DNA of 64,000 bases from positions 32,001 to 96,000 of IMG/VR virus record IMGVR_UViG_3300028603_000001. One strand, written 5' to 3'. How positions within the stretch are numbered: position 1 is the stretch's first letter; the number at the start of each line of letters is the position of its first letter. The notes beneath the pieces were generated by a model that did not search any database, was not told the origin of the DNA, and was given only the letters and a program-made list of their open reading frames with translations. This document shows, piece by piece, positions 31,802 to 59,221 of the stretch. This DNA comes from a virus. Its lineage: Duplodnaviria > Caudoviricetes. A program made the position numbers and the translations under genes.

Positions 31802-32137
31802 TTATTTATTTTCCTTTCGTATTTTTAATTTTAAATCATATAAAATTTCTAAACCATATGCTTTCGCAACAGTATGCTCAATGCGACATCCGCGAGCATT
31901 TTCCCAACCCTTGATAAAATAAACAGCATCACATAAAGACATATATTCTAACGATTTTGCTAAATATGCTACTGATTCTTGTTTTGTGGCAGAGGTGATA
32001 ACATTTTCATCAACAAACGAATCAACAAATTCATACCCCATGTTTATTAGCTTTGAAATTGTTTTTTCTCTTTCATTTTTTATTTCAGTTTCAGTTTTAT
32101 TGGCCATTGGCTGACTTATCATGACTTTTTTAACCAT
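31802..32137 (-). CDS. DUF4406 / nucleoside deoxyribosyltransferase-like protein
   Basis: ISQPM...CDAVYF..GWENARGCRIEH. Confidence 0.75.
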   Translation of the reverse strand: MVKKVMISQPMANKTETEIKNEREKTISKLINMGYEFVDSFVDENVITSATKQESVAYLAKSLEYMSLCDAVYFIKGWENARGCRIEHTVAKAYGLEILYDLKLKIRKENK

Positions 32138-32322
32138 TATTTATTTTCCTTTTCTTTCTCATTCTTATAATATAAAAATATTATCTTTCGCAATAAATCT
32201 GATATAGACATAAATGCATCATCAGCTTCCATTTTCAGTTGATCATACATCATGTGTGAAACTTGCGTACCAACAACTTTCTTAGGTTTTCCTTTTTCTT
32301 TTTCTTGAATTTTAATTTCCAT
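32137..32322 (-). CDS. Ribbon-helix-helix DNA-binding protein
   Basis: VVGTQVS..MYDQLK.EA....MSISDLLR. Confidence 0.65.
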   Translation of the reverse strand: MEIKIQEKEKGKPKKVVGTQVSHMMYDQLKMEADDAFMSISDLLRKIIFLYYKNEKEKENK

Positions 32323-32363
32323 ATTAGTATCCTTTCATGCTATAATAGATTATGTTTTCATTT

Positions 32364-32372
32364 AATTTAGCA
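32364..32372 (-). promoter_or_regulatory. Putative late promoter TGCTAAATT
   Basis: Upstream of the RHH gene. Confidence 0.7.
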
Positions 32373-42581: not shown

Positions 42582-42837
42582 ATTAGATGAAAACATTAAA
42601 ACTATACAAAACGAGCTAGGTGAATATTCAAATTTAGATCGCACAGAGATATTCAATCAGGCTATTAATAAGTTATTGATGCATACTTTGAAAAAATATA
42701 ATAACAAGATTGATGATTTATCTGGTTATTTGTTAAACCAAGAAGGGATGCGAGTACTAAAAGCTATAACAAAAATACAGAAACATGCTGATAAAAAAGT
42801 TATATATGAAAATATGAAAGGAAACACAGATGGCTAA
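42559..42837 (+). CDS. Hypothetical protein
   Basis: 92-aa ORF in an overlapping operon. Confidence 0.6.
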   Translation: MNFLYNSKLDENIKTIQNELGEYSNLDRTEIFNQAINKLLMHTLKKYNNKIDDLSGYLLNQEGMRVLKAITKIQKHADKKVIYENMKGNTDG

Positions 42838-45132: not shown

Positions 45133-45489
45133 ATGGCAAAATCACATTTAATAAAATATTTTTTAGAGGTAGAATACCAATACTTAGAGATGTTAGATAT
45201 TTTAAAAGAGTTGAAAGAATTAGTAAAAGAAGGTAGAATTTCACCCGAAGCTTACGCTGAAGAAGAGGTTAATGTTAGCAGATTAAAAGAAAACTATGAA
45301 AGATTAGCTTTTGTTATGTTCTTATTAAAACAACCTCAACGAAAAGGTAAAAAAATAAGTAAAGATGATTTAAGATGGTATGAAGAGCTAAAAAATCATT
45401 CCAAAGAAGCTATTATTGATGAAAATAATGATGTTTTATGTACAATCAAACAGTTGATAAAAGAAGGAAAATTAAAAAATGAAGAATGA
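45133..45489 (+). CDS. Hypothetical protein
   Basis: 118-aa ORF, RBS AAGGAG. Confidence 0.7.
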   Translation: MAKSHLIKYFLEVEYQYLEMLDILKELKELVKEGRISPEAYAEEEVNVSRLKENYERLAFVMFLLKQPQRKGKKISKDDLRWYEELKNHSKEAIIDENNDVLCTIKQLIKEGKLKNEE

Positions 45490-52211: not shown

Positions 52212-52409
52212 ATGAAATTTGAACACGCGTATATTGAAATGTTAAAAGGTAGAAAAATTAAAAGACCTCAATTTAAAGGTTATTGGTTTATCGATGCTAT
52301 ATCTGGAAAATTAATTATCCATTTAGCTAATGGTGAAGAAATAGACCAAGGTGAGCTAGATCTGACTGTTAGAAATGTTTTAGCTGAAGATTGGGAGGTT
52401 TTTGAATAA
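52212..52409 (+). CDS. DUF2829 / Tad2-like protein
   Basis: M.F..A...M..G.KI.R......VLAEDWEV. Confidence 0.65.
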   Translation: MKFEHAYIEMLKGRKIKRPQFKGYWFIDAISGKLIIHLANGEEIDQGELDLTVRNVLAEDWEVFE

Positions 52410-56741: not shown

Positions 56742-57626
56742 ATGACTAACAAAGAATTAAAAGAAAAGATAAAGCAAAACACTTTAGATGATTCTGCATT
56801 AATTTTAATCTATCCAGATATTCCATTCGTTTGTAATCAATACGTCAATCAGATTTGTAAAAATAGGGGTCTAGAAAAAATAAAAATAAGTAAGCTATCA
56901 GAGATACAAGCTGATGATGAATTATTCGATACGAAGCAATCTTTTTTATACATGTATGAAGTAGATAAGCTAGAAGAAAAACTACCTGAAGACATAAAAA
57001 ACATTATAGTGGTGTGTAAGCAGGCAATGAACAATGAAAATATAGAAACAGTTAAAATAAATAAATTAGAAAATTGGCAGATTGAAGATTATGTTAAAGT
57101 GCGAGTTCCTGGAATAACAGATGACCAAGCAAAATGGTTATGTTCTGTAGCTAAATACAACATATACAGACTAGAAAAAGAATGTGATAAATTAAGCATA
57201 TTTAACAAAGAAGTTCAGCAGTTAGTTTTTAACCAGTTAAATCAAGAAAACGCTTATTATGATCTAAACAGCTTAACTATATTTAATTTTATAACTGCTA
57301 TAGTTAATAAAGATTATCAAACAATGAATGAAGTTTTAGAAAATATCAGATGGATAGATATAGAACCCTCTGGTTGTATAACATTATTATTAAAGCAATT
57401 TAAAACATTAATTGATGTAGCATTTTCTAGTAGTTGGAATAAATCATTGTCATGTTCAGAAAAGCAATTTTATTATTTTAAACATAATATGATGGGATTA
57501 TACACACAAAAACAATTAGTAGATATATATGAATTTTTAACCAGTTTAGATTATAAACTAAAATCAGGGTTTGTTCCAAATAATAGCCTTATAGATTACA
57601 TTTTAGTAAACATTTTAACTCTCTAA
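56742..57626 (+). CDS. holA: Clamp loader delta-like subunit
   Basis: L..E.DKL, IFNFI.AI, LDYKLKSG C-terminus; follows the holB-like gene. Confidence 0.7.
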   Translation: MTNKELKEKIKQNTLDDSALILIYPDIPFVCNQYVNQICKNRGLEKIKISKLSEIQADDELFDTKQSFLYMYEVDKLEEKLPEDIKNIIVVCKQAMNNENIETVKINKLENWQIEDYVKVRVPGITDDQAKWLCSVAKYNIYRLEKECDKLSIFNKEVQQLVFNQLNQENAYYDLNSLTIFNFITAIVNKDYQTMNEVLENIRWIDIEPSGCITLLLKQFKTLIDVAFSSSWNKSLSCSEKQFYYFKHNMMGLYTQKQLVDIYEFLTSLDYKLKSGFVPNNSLIDYILVNILTL

Positions 57627-57647
57627 GAACACATTAATTGATTTATT

Positions 57648-57667
57648 TGCTAAATTTATTGTACAAT
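57648..57667 (+). promoter_or_regulatory. Tandem late (TGCTAAATT) and early-like (ATTGTACAAT) promoters before the ncRNA cluster
   Basis: 57648-57656 and 57658-57667. Confidence 0.6.
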
Positions 57668-57677
57668 ATGAAAAATA

Positions 57678-57744
57678 AAGATACCTACAGCAAAACAAAA
57701 ATCCTACAAATAGTTGTTGCTTCTCGGGAGAGAGCGGGTATCTT
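57678..57744 (+). ncRNA. Skipping-rope-like small RNA
   Basis: Stem AAGATACCT/GGGTATCTT closing a large loop that begins ACAGCAA; internal TCTC-GGGA-GAGA hairpin; family assignment from memory of the motif. Confidence 0.55.
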
Positions 57745-57764
57745 GTTCTTATTTTAATTTATTC

Positions 57765-57839
57765 TGCAGAGTAGAGCAATGGTAGCTTACCGGGCTCATA
57801 ACCCGGCGGTTGAGGGTTCGAATCCCTCCTCTGCGACCA
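57765..57839 (+). tRNA. tRNA-fMet (CAT), initiator type, CCA encoded
   Basis: Cloverleaf; anticodon stem CCGGG/CCCGG with three G-C pairs; A11-U24; weak U1.G72; TTCGAAT T-loop. Confidence 0.93.
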
Positions 57840-57840
57840 T

Positions 57841-57880
57841 AACATAATATTATTGGTCACCTCAGCATTGGTATTATGTT
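57841..57880 (+). ncRNA. Hairpin RNA in the tRNA trailer with an anti-SD-like loop (UCACCUC)
   Basis: AACATAATATTA/TGGTATTATGTT stem; loop TTGGTCACCTCAGCAT. Confidence 0.45.
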
Positions 57881-57949
57881 TAAATATTTATATAGGTGAA
57901 GATAGGAATTCATCTATAAATGTCACAAAAAACTAAAAGGAGAGTTATT

Positions 57950-58429
57950 ATGGACAAATCTTTAAACAGAAAAGAAAAATCAAACACATCTTTCAGCTAT
58001 TATAGTAAAGTTTTACAAAAACCATTTGACACCATCGAGGAGTTAAAAGAAGCTGAAAAAGTTTACCACTCAGAGCAAGCTAAAAAAGAAGCTGCTGCTT
58101 TAGCTAAGAAAAAAGCCGCTTCAATCGTTAACAGCGCTATTGATGCTTATGAGGAAGGAAAAGTAAAATGCAATGAGGCTATTAAACAAGCTTATAATGA
58201 ATACAAAGCAAAAGTAGCTGAAACTGAAAAAGAATTAGCTGTTTTAGAAAAAGATGCTAATGAAAAACTAAACAAATGGTTGGAAGAACATCCAGGTCAA
58301 GGTTTCCATTATACTTACAAATCAGCAGATGGAAAAGTTACAAGACAATATAATTATTACAATAGAAGATATGATGTTTTTGAAGAGTTTGAAAAATTTA
58401 GCCGCCTTCTAAAGGATATTTGGTTCTAA
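57950..58429 (+). CDS. Coiled-coil hypothetical protein
   Basis: ATG 57950 has AAGGAG RBS; YYSKVL.K.FDT.EEL..AE N-terminus. Confidence 0.75.
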   Translation: MDKSLNRKEKSNTSFSYYSKVLQKPFDTIEELKEAEKVYHSEQAKKEAAALAKKKAASIVNSAIDAYEEGKVKCNEAIKQAYNEYKAKVAETEKELAVLEKDANEKLNKWLEEHPGQGFHYTYKSADGKVTRQYNYYNRRYDVFEEFEKFSRLLKDIWF

Positions 58430-58486
58430 ACAGTACAATAAAATAATTTAATAAGTGTATATTTAAAAATTCTGAGGTGAATGCTG

Positions 58487-58513
58487 TAGCTGCAATTGAT
58501 TGCAGCTATTTTT
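58487..58513 (+). terminator. Intrinsic terminator
   Basis: TAGCTGCAA/TTGCAGCTA plus T5. Confidence 0.75.
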
Positions 58514-58622
58514 ATTGTATATTACAGTCTAAATTAAATTAATATAAGAAAGGTACCTAGATATAAAATTAAAAATCACAAAGAAAACAAAAAAAAGATA
58601 TTAATAAAGATTAGATAATAGC

Positions 58623-58631
58623 TGCTAAATT
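58623..58631 (+). promoter_or_regulatory. Putative late promoter with no downstream ORF
   Basis: TGCTAAATTATAATGA directly before a hairpin-terminator. Confidence 0.65.
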
Positions 58632-58637
58632 ATAATG

Positions 58638-58691
58638 AATAACGTATCAGGTTAACTTATCCTTTCATAGCCTGATATGTTATTTTTTTTT
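58638..58691 (+). ncRNA. Candidate ~50-nt sRNA with an anti-SD loop (UAUCCUUUCA)
   Basis: 17-bp stem 58638-54/58668-84 (two G.U pairs), loop ACTTATCCTTTCA, then a T-run. Confidence 0.55.
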
Positions 58692-58723
58692 ACTTTTTTA
58701 TTGTTACATTAATAAATTATTTC

Positions 58724-58733
58724 ATTGTATATT
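58724..58733 (+). promoter_or_regulatory. Putative early/middle promoter ATTGTATATT
   Basis: Upstream of the NADAR-DnaC-DnaB-DnaG operon. Confidence 0.55.
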
Positions 58734-58753
58734 ATAATAAGGAGGATATTATT

Positions 58754-59221
58754 ATGTTATTTAAAGATAAATATTTCTTTTTAAGTACATTTCACCAAGC
58801 AACATTTTCAATGAATATTGATGGAAAAGAATGTAAATTCTCAAATGTTGAAGCAGCATATCAAGCACAGAAAAATCCAGAGATAGCAGATAAATTCTCA
58901 CAAGTAAAAGGACTAGAAGCGAAAAGGATGGATGACAAGTTAATAATAACTGTACCTAATTGGGAAAGATACAAATTATATGCGATGGCAAATGCTTTAC
59001 ATGCAAAATTCAGCAACAAGTTAATATTCTCACAGTTAAAAGCTATTAAAGAAGACATCATCAATGATAATTATTGGGGAGATACTTATTGGGGCGTTTA
59101 TAAAGGCCGAGGAAAAAATATCCTAGGAAAAATGCTGATGAATATTCGGGATAATAATAATGATAAAGATATATTGTATAGTTATATATCAAAAGAATTG
59201 ATAGGAGAAGATGATAAATGA
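58754..59221 (+). CDS. NADAR (YbiA-like) family protein
   Basis: FLS.F, VEAAYQAQK, AKF, WGDTYWG, G.NILGKMLM.IR. Confidence 0.88.
   Translation: MLFKDKYFFLSTFHQATFSMNIDGKECKFSNVEAAYQAQKNPEIADKFSQVKGLEAKRMDDKLIITVPNWERYKLYAMANALHAKFSNKLIFSQLKAIKEDIINDNYWGDTYWGVYKGRGKNILGKMLMNIRDNNNDKDILYSYISKELIGEDDK

Follow-up and report, generated by a model that had tools for sequence, protein, structure and literature searches.

A covarying hairpin RNA gene in an uncultured 181-kb tailed phage, with an invariant loop complementary to Shine-Dalgarno regions: a candidate trans-acting small RNA

What is the role of a promoter that appears to fire straight into a terminator, with no reading frame between the two? 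The question is raised by a locus in an uncultured tailed phage of 181 kb, here called G000. It was examined in a window of 64,000 nucleotides, bases 32001-96000 of an IMG/VR virus record of 180.8 kb that has direct terminal repeats and about 29% G+C; coordinates given below are those of the window. A search for close relatives found no DNA similarity to INPHARED phages beyond a tRNA match, and the samples from which the lineage was recovered appear to be rumen. On balance we favor, with modest confidence, a small hairpin RNA gene of about 55 nt, whose loop would pair with Shine-Dalgarno (SD) regions and lower translation. Since the loop does not change and is able to pair with ribosome-binding sites (RBSs) of two phage genes, a small regulatory RNA is the most likely reading.

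The hairpin lies on the plus strand. In the minimum-free-energy fold its 5′ arm (58637-58654) pairs with its 3′ arm (58668-58685) over 18 bp, an arrangement also indicated by covariation, and the arms enclose a loop of 13 nt (58655-58667). At -20.7 kcal/mol (z = -3.6), the fold has a stability that none of 200 shuffled sequences equaled. The conserved loop core, AACTTATCCTTTCATA (58654-58669, plus strand), is delimited by its invariance across different stems; it contains the anti-SD-like UCCUUUC and is the proposed seed. The stem runs into nine T residues (T9, 58683-58691, plus strand), which would form the U-tract of an intrinsic terminator and are the putative 3′ end of the RNA. There is no open reading frame of at least 25 aa on the plus strand between 58430 and 58753, and the two strands of the hairpin itself hold just frames of 6-13 codons, which have no SD and are not conserved. 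The original prediction described a box, a stem, a loop and a U-tract without an open reading frame, and all of these parts were found; its stem of 17 bp becomes one of 18 bp in the fold.

The element shares with an ordinary intrinsic terminator a stable stem with a U-tract directly behind it and, in relatives, a position after a stop codon. It is unlike one in having an invariant loop of 13-19 nt in place of a short, unconstrained loop of 3-8 nt, in having a promoter box of its own and, in G000, in being separate from the terminator of the upstream gene. The length and invariance of the loop explain why a consensus terminator scan missed the hairpin at 58637. At the level of sequence, the element has the makeup of an independent transcription unit, with its own promoter and terminator and no open reading frame.

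The intergenic region in which it lies, 58430-58753, separates a gene for a protein of 169 aa, of no known family, from a NADAR-domain gene (58754-59221). Along the plus strand the region contains an intrinsic terminator found by a terminator scan (58486-58509), a promoter-like box of a second class, TTGTATATTA (58515-58524), the box TGCTAAATTA, the hairpin, T9 and, at 58725, a second copy of TTGTATATTA immediately 5′ of the NADAR start. Since the 169-aa gene has its own terminator at 58486-58509, it ends without need of the hairpin. The second-class motif, TTGTATAWTA, has 27 copies in the genome, which are mostly 3′ of terminators and 5′ of genes of the replication type or of nucleotide metabolism. 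The copy at 58515 is 105 nt upstream of the hairpin and faces it across bases that contain no open reading frame, so that in G000 only it could yield a longer RNA isoform of about 160 nt; the hairpin is retained in the predicted fold of this long form. In five relatives, the RNA gene is placed between a gene for a metallophosphoesterase-like protein of 280 aa (L035:1553-2395) and the NADAR-domain gene, and the element follows directly 3′ of the metallophosphoesterase-like stop codon; the upstream neighbor in G000 is instead the 169-aa gene. NADAR proteins reverse DarT-type ADP-ribosylation of DNA bases, and the downstream gene may therefore serve in counter-defense.

A tRNA-Met gene (57765-57839), 0.9 kb upstream, has a late box ahead of it at 57648 and three G-C pairs in the anticodon stem, as in initiators (window 57648-57880). 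Directly after this tRNA there is a 12-bp hairpin with UCACCUC in its loop, which is the other half of the anti-SD tail of 16S rRNA.

The box that precedes the RNA, TGCTAAATTA (58623-58632, plus strand), is a long -10 element with no -35 and belongs to a motif repeated in the genome. The core of this motif, TGCTAAATT, has 26 copies in 180.8 kb, 22 of them on the minus strand, the arm that encodes the tail sheath and a tail protein. Nearly all copies are 20-90 nt 5′ of an SD and ATG or of a tRNA, including one ahead of the tRNA-Met at 57765, and they have in common the downstream consensus TGCTAAATT-www-TGATA. A distant relative, G001, likewise has this 8-mer in excess in the intergenic DNA 5′ of its genes. 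In those members of the RNA family that were found without requiring the box, the box is 4-5 nt ahead of the stem, and CTAAATT is at a fixed spacing in every one.

Although the phage is not a recognizable herellevirus by its sequence, the box is of the type seen in Herelleviridae, TG(C/T)TATATTA, a long -10 without a -35 in front of late or structural genes, and agrees with it at 9 of 10 bases. The mapped late promoter of Listeria phage CKA15 is TGCTATATTA (PMC12282133), with 9 of 10 bases identical to the box. The late promoter of Kayvirus, from Staphylococcus phages, is TGTTATATTA (PMC7698491); it resembles the box, both being extended -10 elements of 10 nt that have no -35 and are found 5′ of structural genes. 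The two herellevirus promoters have been mapped; the box described here is known from its sequence, and its use late in infection is predicted by analogy. Transcription in Kayvirus starts 6 nt past the late box, often with G (PMC7698491). By this rule the RNA would start on the first bases of the stem, and a start within about 3 nt of 58637 is the likely one.

Is the hairpin conserved as an RNA? Homologues were collected by three routes: through the neighboring NADAR and metallophosphoesterase-like genes, by a search with the loop 17-mer, and with a box-plus-loop pattern in metagenomes and IMG/VR. A covariance model made from 4 sequences recovers 15 distinct homologues, from contigs of viruses and metagenomes, at E values from 1e-19 to 2e-6. 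It finds exactly one copy each in G000 and G001, and no copy in five more distant large relatives. Among the 15 homologues, 14 of the 15 modeled stem pairs have changed on both sides; the first six homologues alone gave 13 of 15. Paired cells make up 92% of the total, compared to 41-61% when the 3′ partner is slid, and the covariation score was equaled in 0 of 500 shuffles. While the stems have become nearly unrelated, the box, the loop core AACTT[A/T]TCCTTTCATA and the T run, which follows the stem in all homologues, have not changed. The core is identical in G000, G001, L048 and L049 despite dissimilar stems, and an A-to-T variant is present in L047, L051, G013 and G014. Altogether 16-17 loop bases are invariant, which is partly forced in the metagenome members, where the search pattern demanded the box and 14 loop bases; the six members to which synteny or the loop alone led provide independent evidence of both the box and the hairpin. 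What is kept of the stem is its pairing only; the loop core, AACUU(A/U)UCCUUUCAUA, is preserved in sequence and is single-stranded in the covariation-based structure.

In Rfam there was no match to the window at the gathering score, and the hairpin was unmatched even at E <= 10 when 57600-58800 was searched. Judged by its covariation, the element represents a genuine family of RNAs that Rfam does not contain. About 40 contigs from freshwater lakes that matched the box-plus-loop pattern (L174, L176, L180, L183-L185 and about 35 more) were rejected as homologues. They have no hairpin; the match, with a fixed span of 39 nt, is the RBS of an unrelated group read from the opposite strand, where a gene has the conserved start ATGAAAGGAAAAGAACC....

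With which messages could the loop pair? In the window the 11-mer TATCCTTTCAT occurs just twice, at 58658 within the hairpin and at 32328, in both cases on the plus strand. The second copy is at the start of a gene for a ribbon-helix-helix (RHH) protein, and that gene runs along the minus strand from its ATG at 32322, which makes the loop antisense to AUGAAAGGAUA. The proposed target site (32328-32338, minus strand) consists of the SD and 4 nt upstream of it and ends 5 nt before the AUG. This identity is present as originally described. It is also the longest complementarity to the loop among the translation initiation regions (TIRs) of G000, rank 1 of 258, with a duplex energy of -14.0 kcal/mol, which is within a continuous distribution and is no outlier. 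A count of 11-mer matches had been suggested as a check. It found only the two copies, and shuffles gave 0.09 for the recurrence of the 11-mer, but the lone 11-nt match is not significant, since 63% of SD-centered 17-mers from G000 TIRs also match another TIR over at least 11 nt. The complement of the loop is a typical SD and spacer of low-GC genomes, and unrelated phages and bacteria have it, as GAAAGGATAAGTTATG, where genes start. There is no perfect 17-nt target in the phage genomes compared. A search for a perfect host target in 185,579 species genomes gave 60 scattered matches, approximately the number expected by chance, which do not cluster by genus or gene; roughly half of them are ordinary SD-ATG sites of unrelated genes. 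Host mRNAs may still be hit through a shorter or an imperfect match.

The RHH leader (window 32323-32342) has an AUG of its own, opening a mini-frame of 4 codons (AUG AAA GGA UAC UAA) that overlaps the SD and stops one base before the real start codon. Two shorter matches had been pointed out as well, and both exist. The gene at 42830, with 10 nt, has orthologues in which the motif that would support it as a target is missing, and for the gene at 52212, with 9 nt, the genomes compared contain no orthologue. Also considered and rejected as a target was the NADAR gene downstream of the hairpin, whose SD pairs over 8 bp only, including two G-U pairs, in a pairing that is not conserved. In the 13-18-kb contigs of four relatives, no local complementary site rises above the control level. 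Outside the window, genes for proteins of 256 and 526 aa have nearly identical leaders of 30 nt, AAA(A/T)ATATGTCATGAAAGGAAAATATAAAAATG, and these duplicated start regions (G000:C1 ~156541-156571 and 164646-164676) have 9 nt complementary to the loop.

The target predicted in G000 is a CopG/Arc-like RHH regulator of 61 aa (32137-32322, minus strand), recognized from its translation and an orthologue profile. It is in the structural arm, where it adjoins the tail sheath gene, and it has its own late box at 32364-32372; an own late box precedes the RHH gene in 6 of 6 cases. A profile of four orthologues matches AvtR (5.9e-5) and CopG (0.025), followed by ORF56 and ParG, and the G001 orthologue matches a PHROG of Arc-like repressors (4.3e-7). 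Matches of the orthologues to Pfam RHH_1 are below the cut-off. The profile and PHROG matches uphold the RHH identity that had been proposed for this gene. A second target family, equally strong and overlooked in the first reading of the sequence, encodes proteins of 96-118 aa that have no family match in profile searches of Pfam and PHROGs. Its promoter is of the other class, and the motif complementary to the loop is about 15 nt past the box.

The stronger evidence for targeting comes from a comparison of the large genomes that have the RNA: G000, G001 (157 kb), G013 (167 kb) and G014 (101 kb). G000 and G001 have 78 of 266 genes in common, with a median identity of 47%, and only about a quarter of the genes are common to the four genomes, at about 47% identity. 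In each genome the TIRs were ranked by their longest complementarity to that genome's own loop; the gene calls are rough, the gene at 42830 having been missed, and a scan free of gene calls agrees. The RHH gene of G000 has 11 nt and ranks 1 of 258, and the 96-118-aa family has no site there. In G001, the 118-aa gene ranks 1 of 266 with 14 nt, and the RHH gene has 11 nt. In G013, the 96-aa gene ranks 1 of 323 with 12 nt, and the RHH gene has 8 nt. In G014, the RHH gene is first of 179 with 12 nt, and the 96-aa gene is second with 11 nt. The top TIR thus belongs to one of the same two orthologue families in 4 of 4 genomes, which are not four independent tests, since G013 and G014 are close relatives. 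Two RHH orthologues on short contigs have 12 nt of complementarity (L314) and 10 bp including one G-U (L315). Mock loops with the GAAAGGA core and random flanks reached the scores of the two families in 0.5% and 1% of 400 trials over 81 orthologue families. Complementarity to start regions is therefore conserved beyond chance. The set of targets is not uniform, the 118-aa orthologue of G000 (at 45133) being without a site and the RHH site of G013 having only 8 nt. The claim that the RNA has a loop antisense to the RHH RBS gains support from the covariation in 15 homologues and from the 11-12-nt RHH matches of G001, G014 and L314.

Among the orthologues compared between G000 and G014 and between G001 and G014, no other TIR is conserved as strongly as that of the RHH gene. 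Loops with UUAUCC face targets with GGAUA and loops with UUUUCC face GGAA at 6 of 7 sites for which the loop is known, the exception being RHH in G001; since there have been just one or two independent changes, this agreement is only suggestive. The L315 target, left out of this count, reads GGAAAA. In two relatives without the RNA, G006 and G008, the orthologues have plain AAGGAG SDs and the motif is absent. The RHH motif of G000 and L314 is 6-7 nt from the ATG and 25-30 nt from the box, from which it follows that the motif tracks the start codon and not the promoter. In G001, G013 and G014 it abuts the promoter box. There its first bases may precede the transcription start, and it may partly reflect the TGA element found downstream of the promoter. 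The full motif is inside the leader in G000, in L314 and at all sites of the 96-118-aa family.

Several other readings of these facts have to be weighed. RHH proteins often autoregulate at operators that overlap their own promoters and are usually palindromic or repeated. It is conceivable that the common 16 bp are an operator in double-stranded DNA, perhaps for the RHH protein itself, so that the gene starts and, in inverted orientation, the terminator loop share a protein site and no RNA pairing takes place. The abutting motifs of G001, G013 and G014 and the motif close to the promoter box of the 118-aa gene would suit such an operator, which we nevertheless regard as very unlikely: the spacing in G000 and L314 follows the ATG, the motif always doubles as an SD and is neither palindromic nor repeated, and its fixed position in the loop of a covarying stem would be unexplained. 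Still less probable, to a point where we give it little weight, is that the hairpin is a promoter-proximal terminator gating read-through into the NADAR and helicase genes, with the short RNA as a by-product. In lambda, PR′-tR′ has the same layout of a promoter firing into a terminator and yields the short 6S RNA, and late transcription of Kayvirus passes at least one terminator largely unhindered (PMC7698491). What makes a gate unlikely here is that the downstream genes have a conserved promoter of their own, where the gated late genes of lambda have none. Their box, of the other promoter class, is 35-40 nt past the U-tract in 6 aligned homologues, and the genes are of the replication type, not late. 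Nor would gating be expected to select a loop that is invariant and complementary to start regions far away.

The remaining readings accept a functional RNA and differ on what reads the loop. A conserved loop recognized by a phage or host protein, serving as an element of stability or processing or as a decoy for a factor of the 16S tail, is unlikely but must be taken seriously. The 16-17 bases are invariant at about 47% protein identity, which is more than a seed of 11-14 nt needs, and for this reason something else may read the loop in addition to the target mRNAs. UCCUUUC is common to the loop and the 16S tail, the place directly after the metallophosphoesterase-like stop in five relatives is one where a terminator is expected, and neither the missing perfect target in the phage genomes compared nor the lack of clusters in species genomes speaks for pairing over 17 nt. 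No candidate for the binding protein was found, however, and such recognition leaves unexplained why the top matches in four genomes fall in the same two families and why the motif is absent from relatives without the RNA. A generic mimic of the anti-SD, in which an abundant late RNA competes for SDs of the GAAAGGA type and has no dedicated targets, seems to us more doubtful. Across TIRs, the energy of the duplex with the loop is correlated with that of the 16S anti-SD (Spearman 0.51-0.66), the complement of the loop is an ordinary SD-spacer-ATG in unrelated phages and bacteria, and the hairpin with the UCACCUC loop is 0.8 kb upstream. Yet for a sponge the 7-nt core would suffice, whereas the flanks are invariant and have family-specific matches; for most late genes the SD is AAGGAG, with poor pairing beyond GGA; the energies of loop-TIR duplexes are equal between the two arms, or gene classes, of G000 (p = 0.95); and no UCACCUC hairpin was seen after the tRNA-Met genes of G001 and G013. 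A related and slightly less probable proposal is that the RNA mimics the 3′ tail of 16S rRNA and, together with the tRNA-Met and the UCACCUC hairpin, re-programs the initiation of translation late in infection. One way would be to compete for, or protect, a class of SDs on mRNAs of the phage or the host; another would be to serve as the decoy of some host factor attacking the anti-SD tail.

In the small regulatory RNA that we favor, the phage late-type promoter would start transcription at the first base of the stem or within about 3 nt of it, and the 18-bp stem with its U-tract would end transcription and shield the RNA at its 5′ and 3′ ends. Resembling the 3′ tail of 16S rRNA, the loop would pair with phage SD regions that read (U)AUGAAAGGA(U/A)A. 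Its targets would be the RHH regulator under a late promoter in G000 and the 96-118-aa protein under the other promoter class in the relatives. Pairing would block binding of the 30S subunit, and less of these proteins would be made late in infection. The RNA and the RHH mRNA, expressed from promoters of the same class, would rise together, so that the regulator would be capped or delayed; in the case of the 96-118-aa gene, the RNA would shut off an earlier product. Expression, timing and repression are all inferred from sequence.

Antisense RNAs that occlude RBSs are found in other phages: P22 sar, P1/P7 c4, lambda OOP and DicF of a prophage. P22 sar is in a circuit with the RHH repressors Arc and Mnt, and c4 and DicF have loop or seed complementarity to an SD region. 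The hairpin RNA is like this group in being short, in ending at an intrinsic terminator and in its proposed masking of an RBS, and has no sequence similarity to any of the four. Sar and OOP are cis-antisense RNAs, unlike the RNA described here, which is encoded 26 kb away from its target; it does not overlap the RHH gene on the opposite strand, the other copy of the 11-mer being 26.3 kb off. All four come from temperate phages of Proteobacteria, whereas G000, tailed and 181 kb long, encodes a tail sheath, has a direct terminal repeat and shows no link to lysogeny.

Firmicutes have regulatory RNAs, such as RsaE/RoxS, with C/U-rich loops that pair with SDs. The hairpins of S. aureus RNAIII likewise have pyrimidine-rich loops on stable stems, complementary to the SDs of mRNAs encoded in trans (PMC2837412). 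The action proposed for the phage RNA, a block of the 30S subunit, is the same as for the Firmicute loops, and a terminator hairpin likewise carries the seed. The phage RNA differs from the Firmicute RNAs in being phage-encoded, in consisting of a single hairpin of about 55 nt under a phage late-type promoter, and in having phage genes as its candidate targets; no kinship to the Firmicute RNAs with C/U-rich loops was found by sequence or in Rfam. With a conserved single-stranded seed on a structure kept by covariation, and as neither a cis-antisense RNA nor a member of a described family, we class it provisionally as a trans-acting anti-RBS small RNA.

Very little has been charted of the regulatory RNAs that large lytic phages encode, and the functions of the abundant non-coding RNAs of Kayvirus phages were stated to be unknown (PMC7698491). 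Here, comparison of sequences has given a circuit that can be tested, consisting of a promoter class, a 55-nt RNA, a 16-nt seed with a natural A/U variant that follows its targets, and two target leaders. If the proposal is correct, an uncultured lineage would provide a clear example of a phage transcription regulator under the control of an anti-RBS small RNA acting in trans, and the RNA would be a small natural component with which translation could be controlled in low-GC hosts.

The relatives with the RNA also have large sets of tRNA genes, 26 in G001 and 32 in G013 (loci L036-L043 for G001, L292-L300 for G013 and L301-L306 for G014). A tRNA with anticodon UCA, labeled SeC by ARAGORN, is present in G001, G013 and G014, and under table 11 the coding density of G001 is 78%, compared to 91% in G000. 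In the three phages with this tRNA, UGA may be reassigned or subject to read-through.
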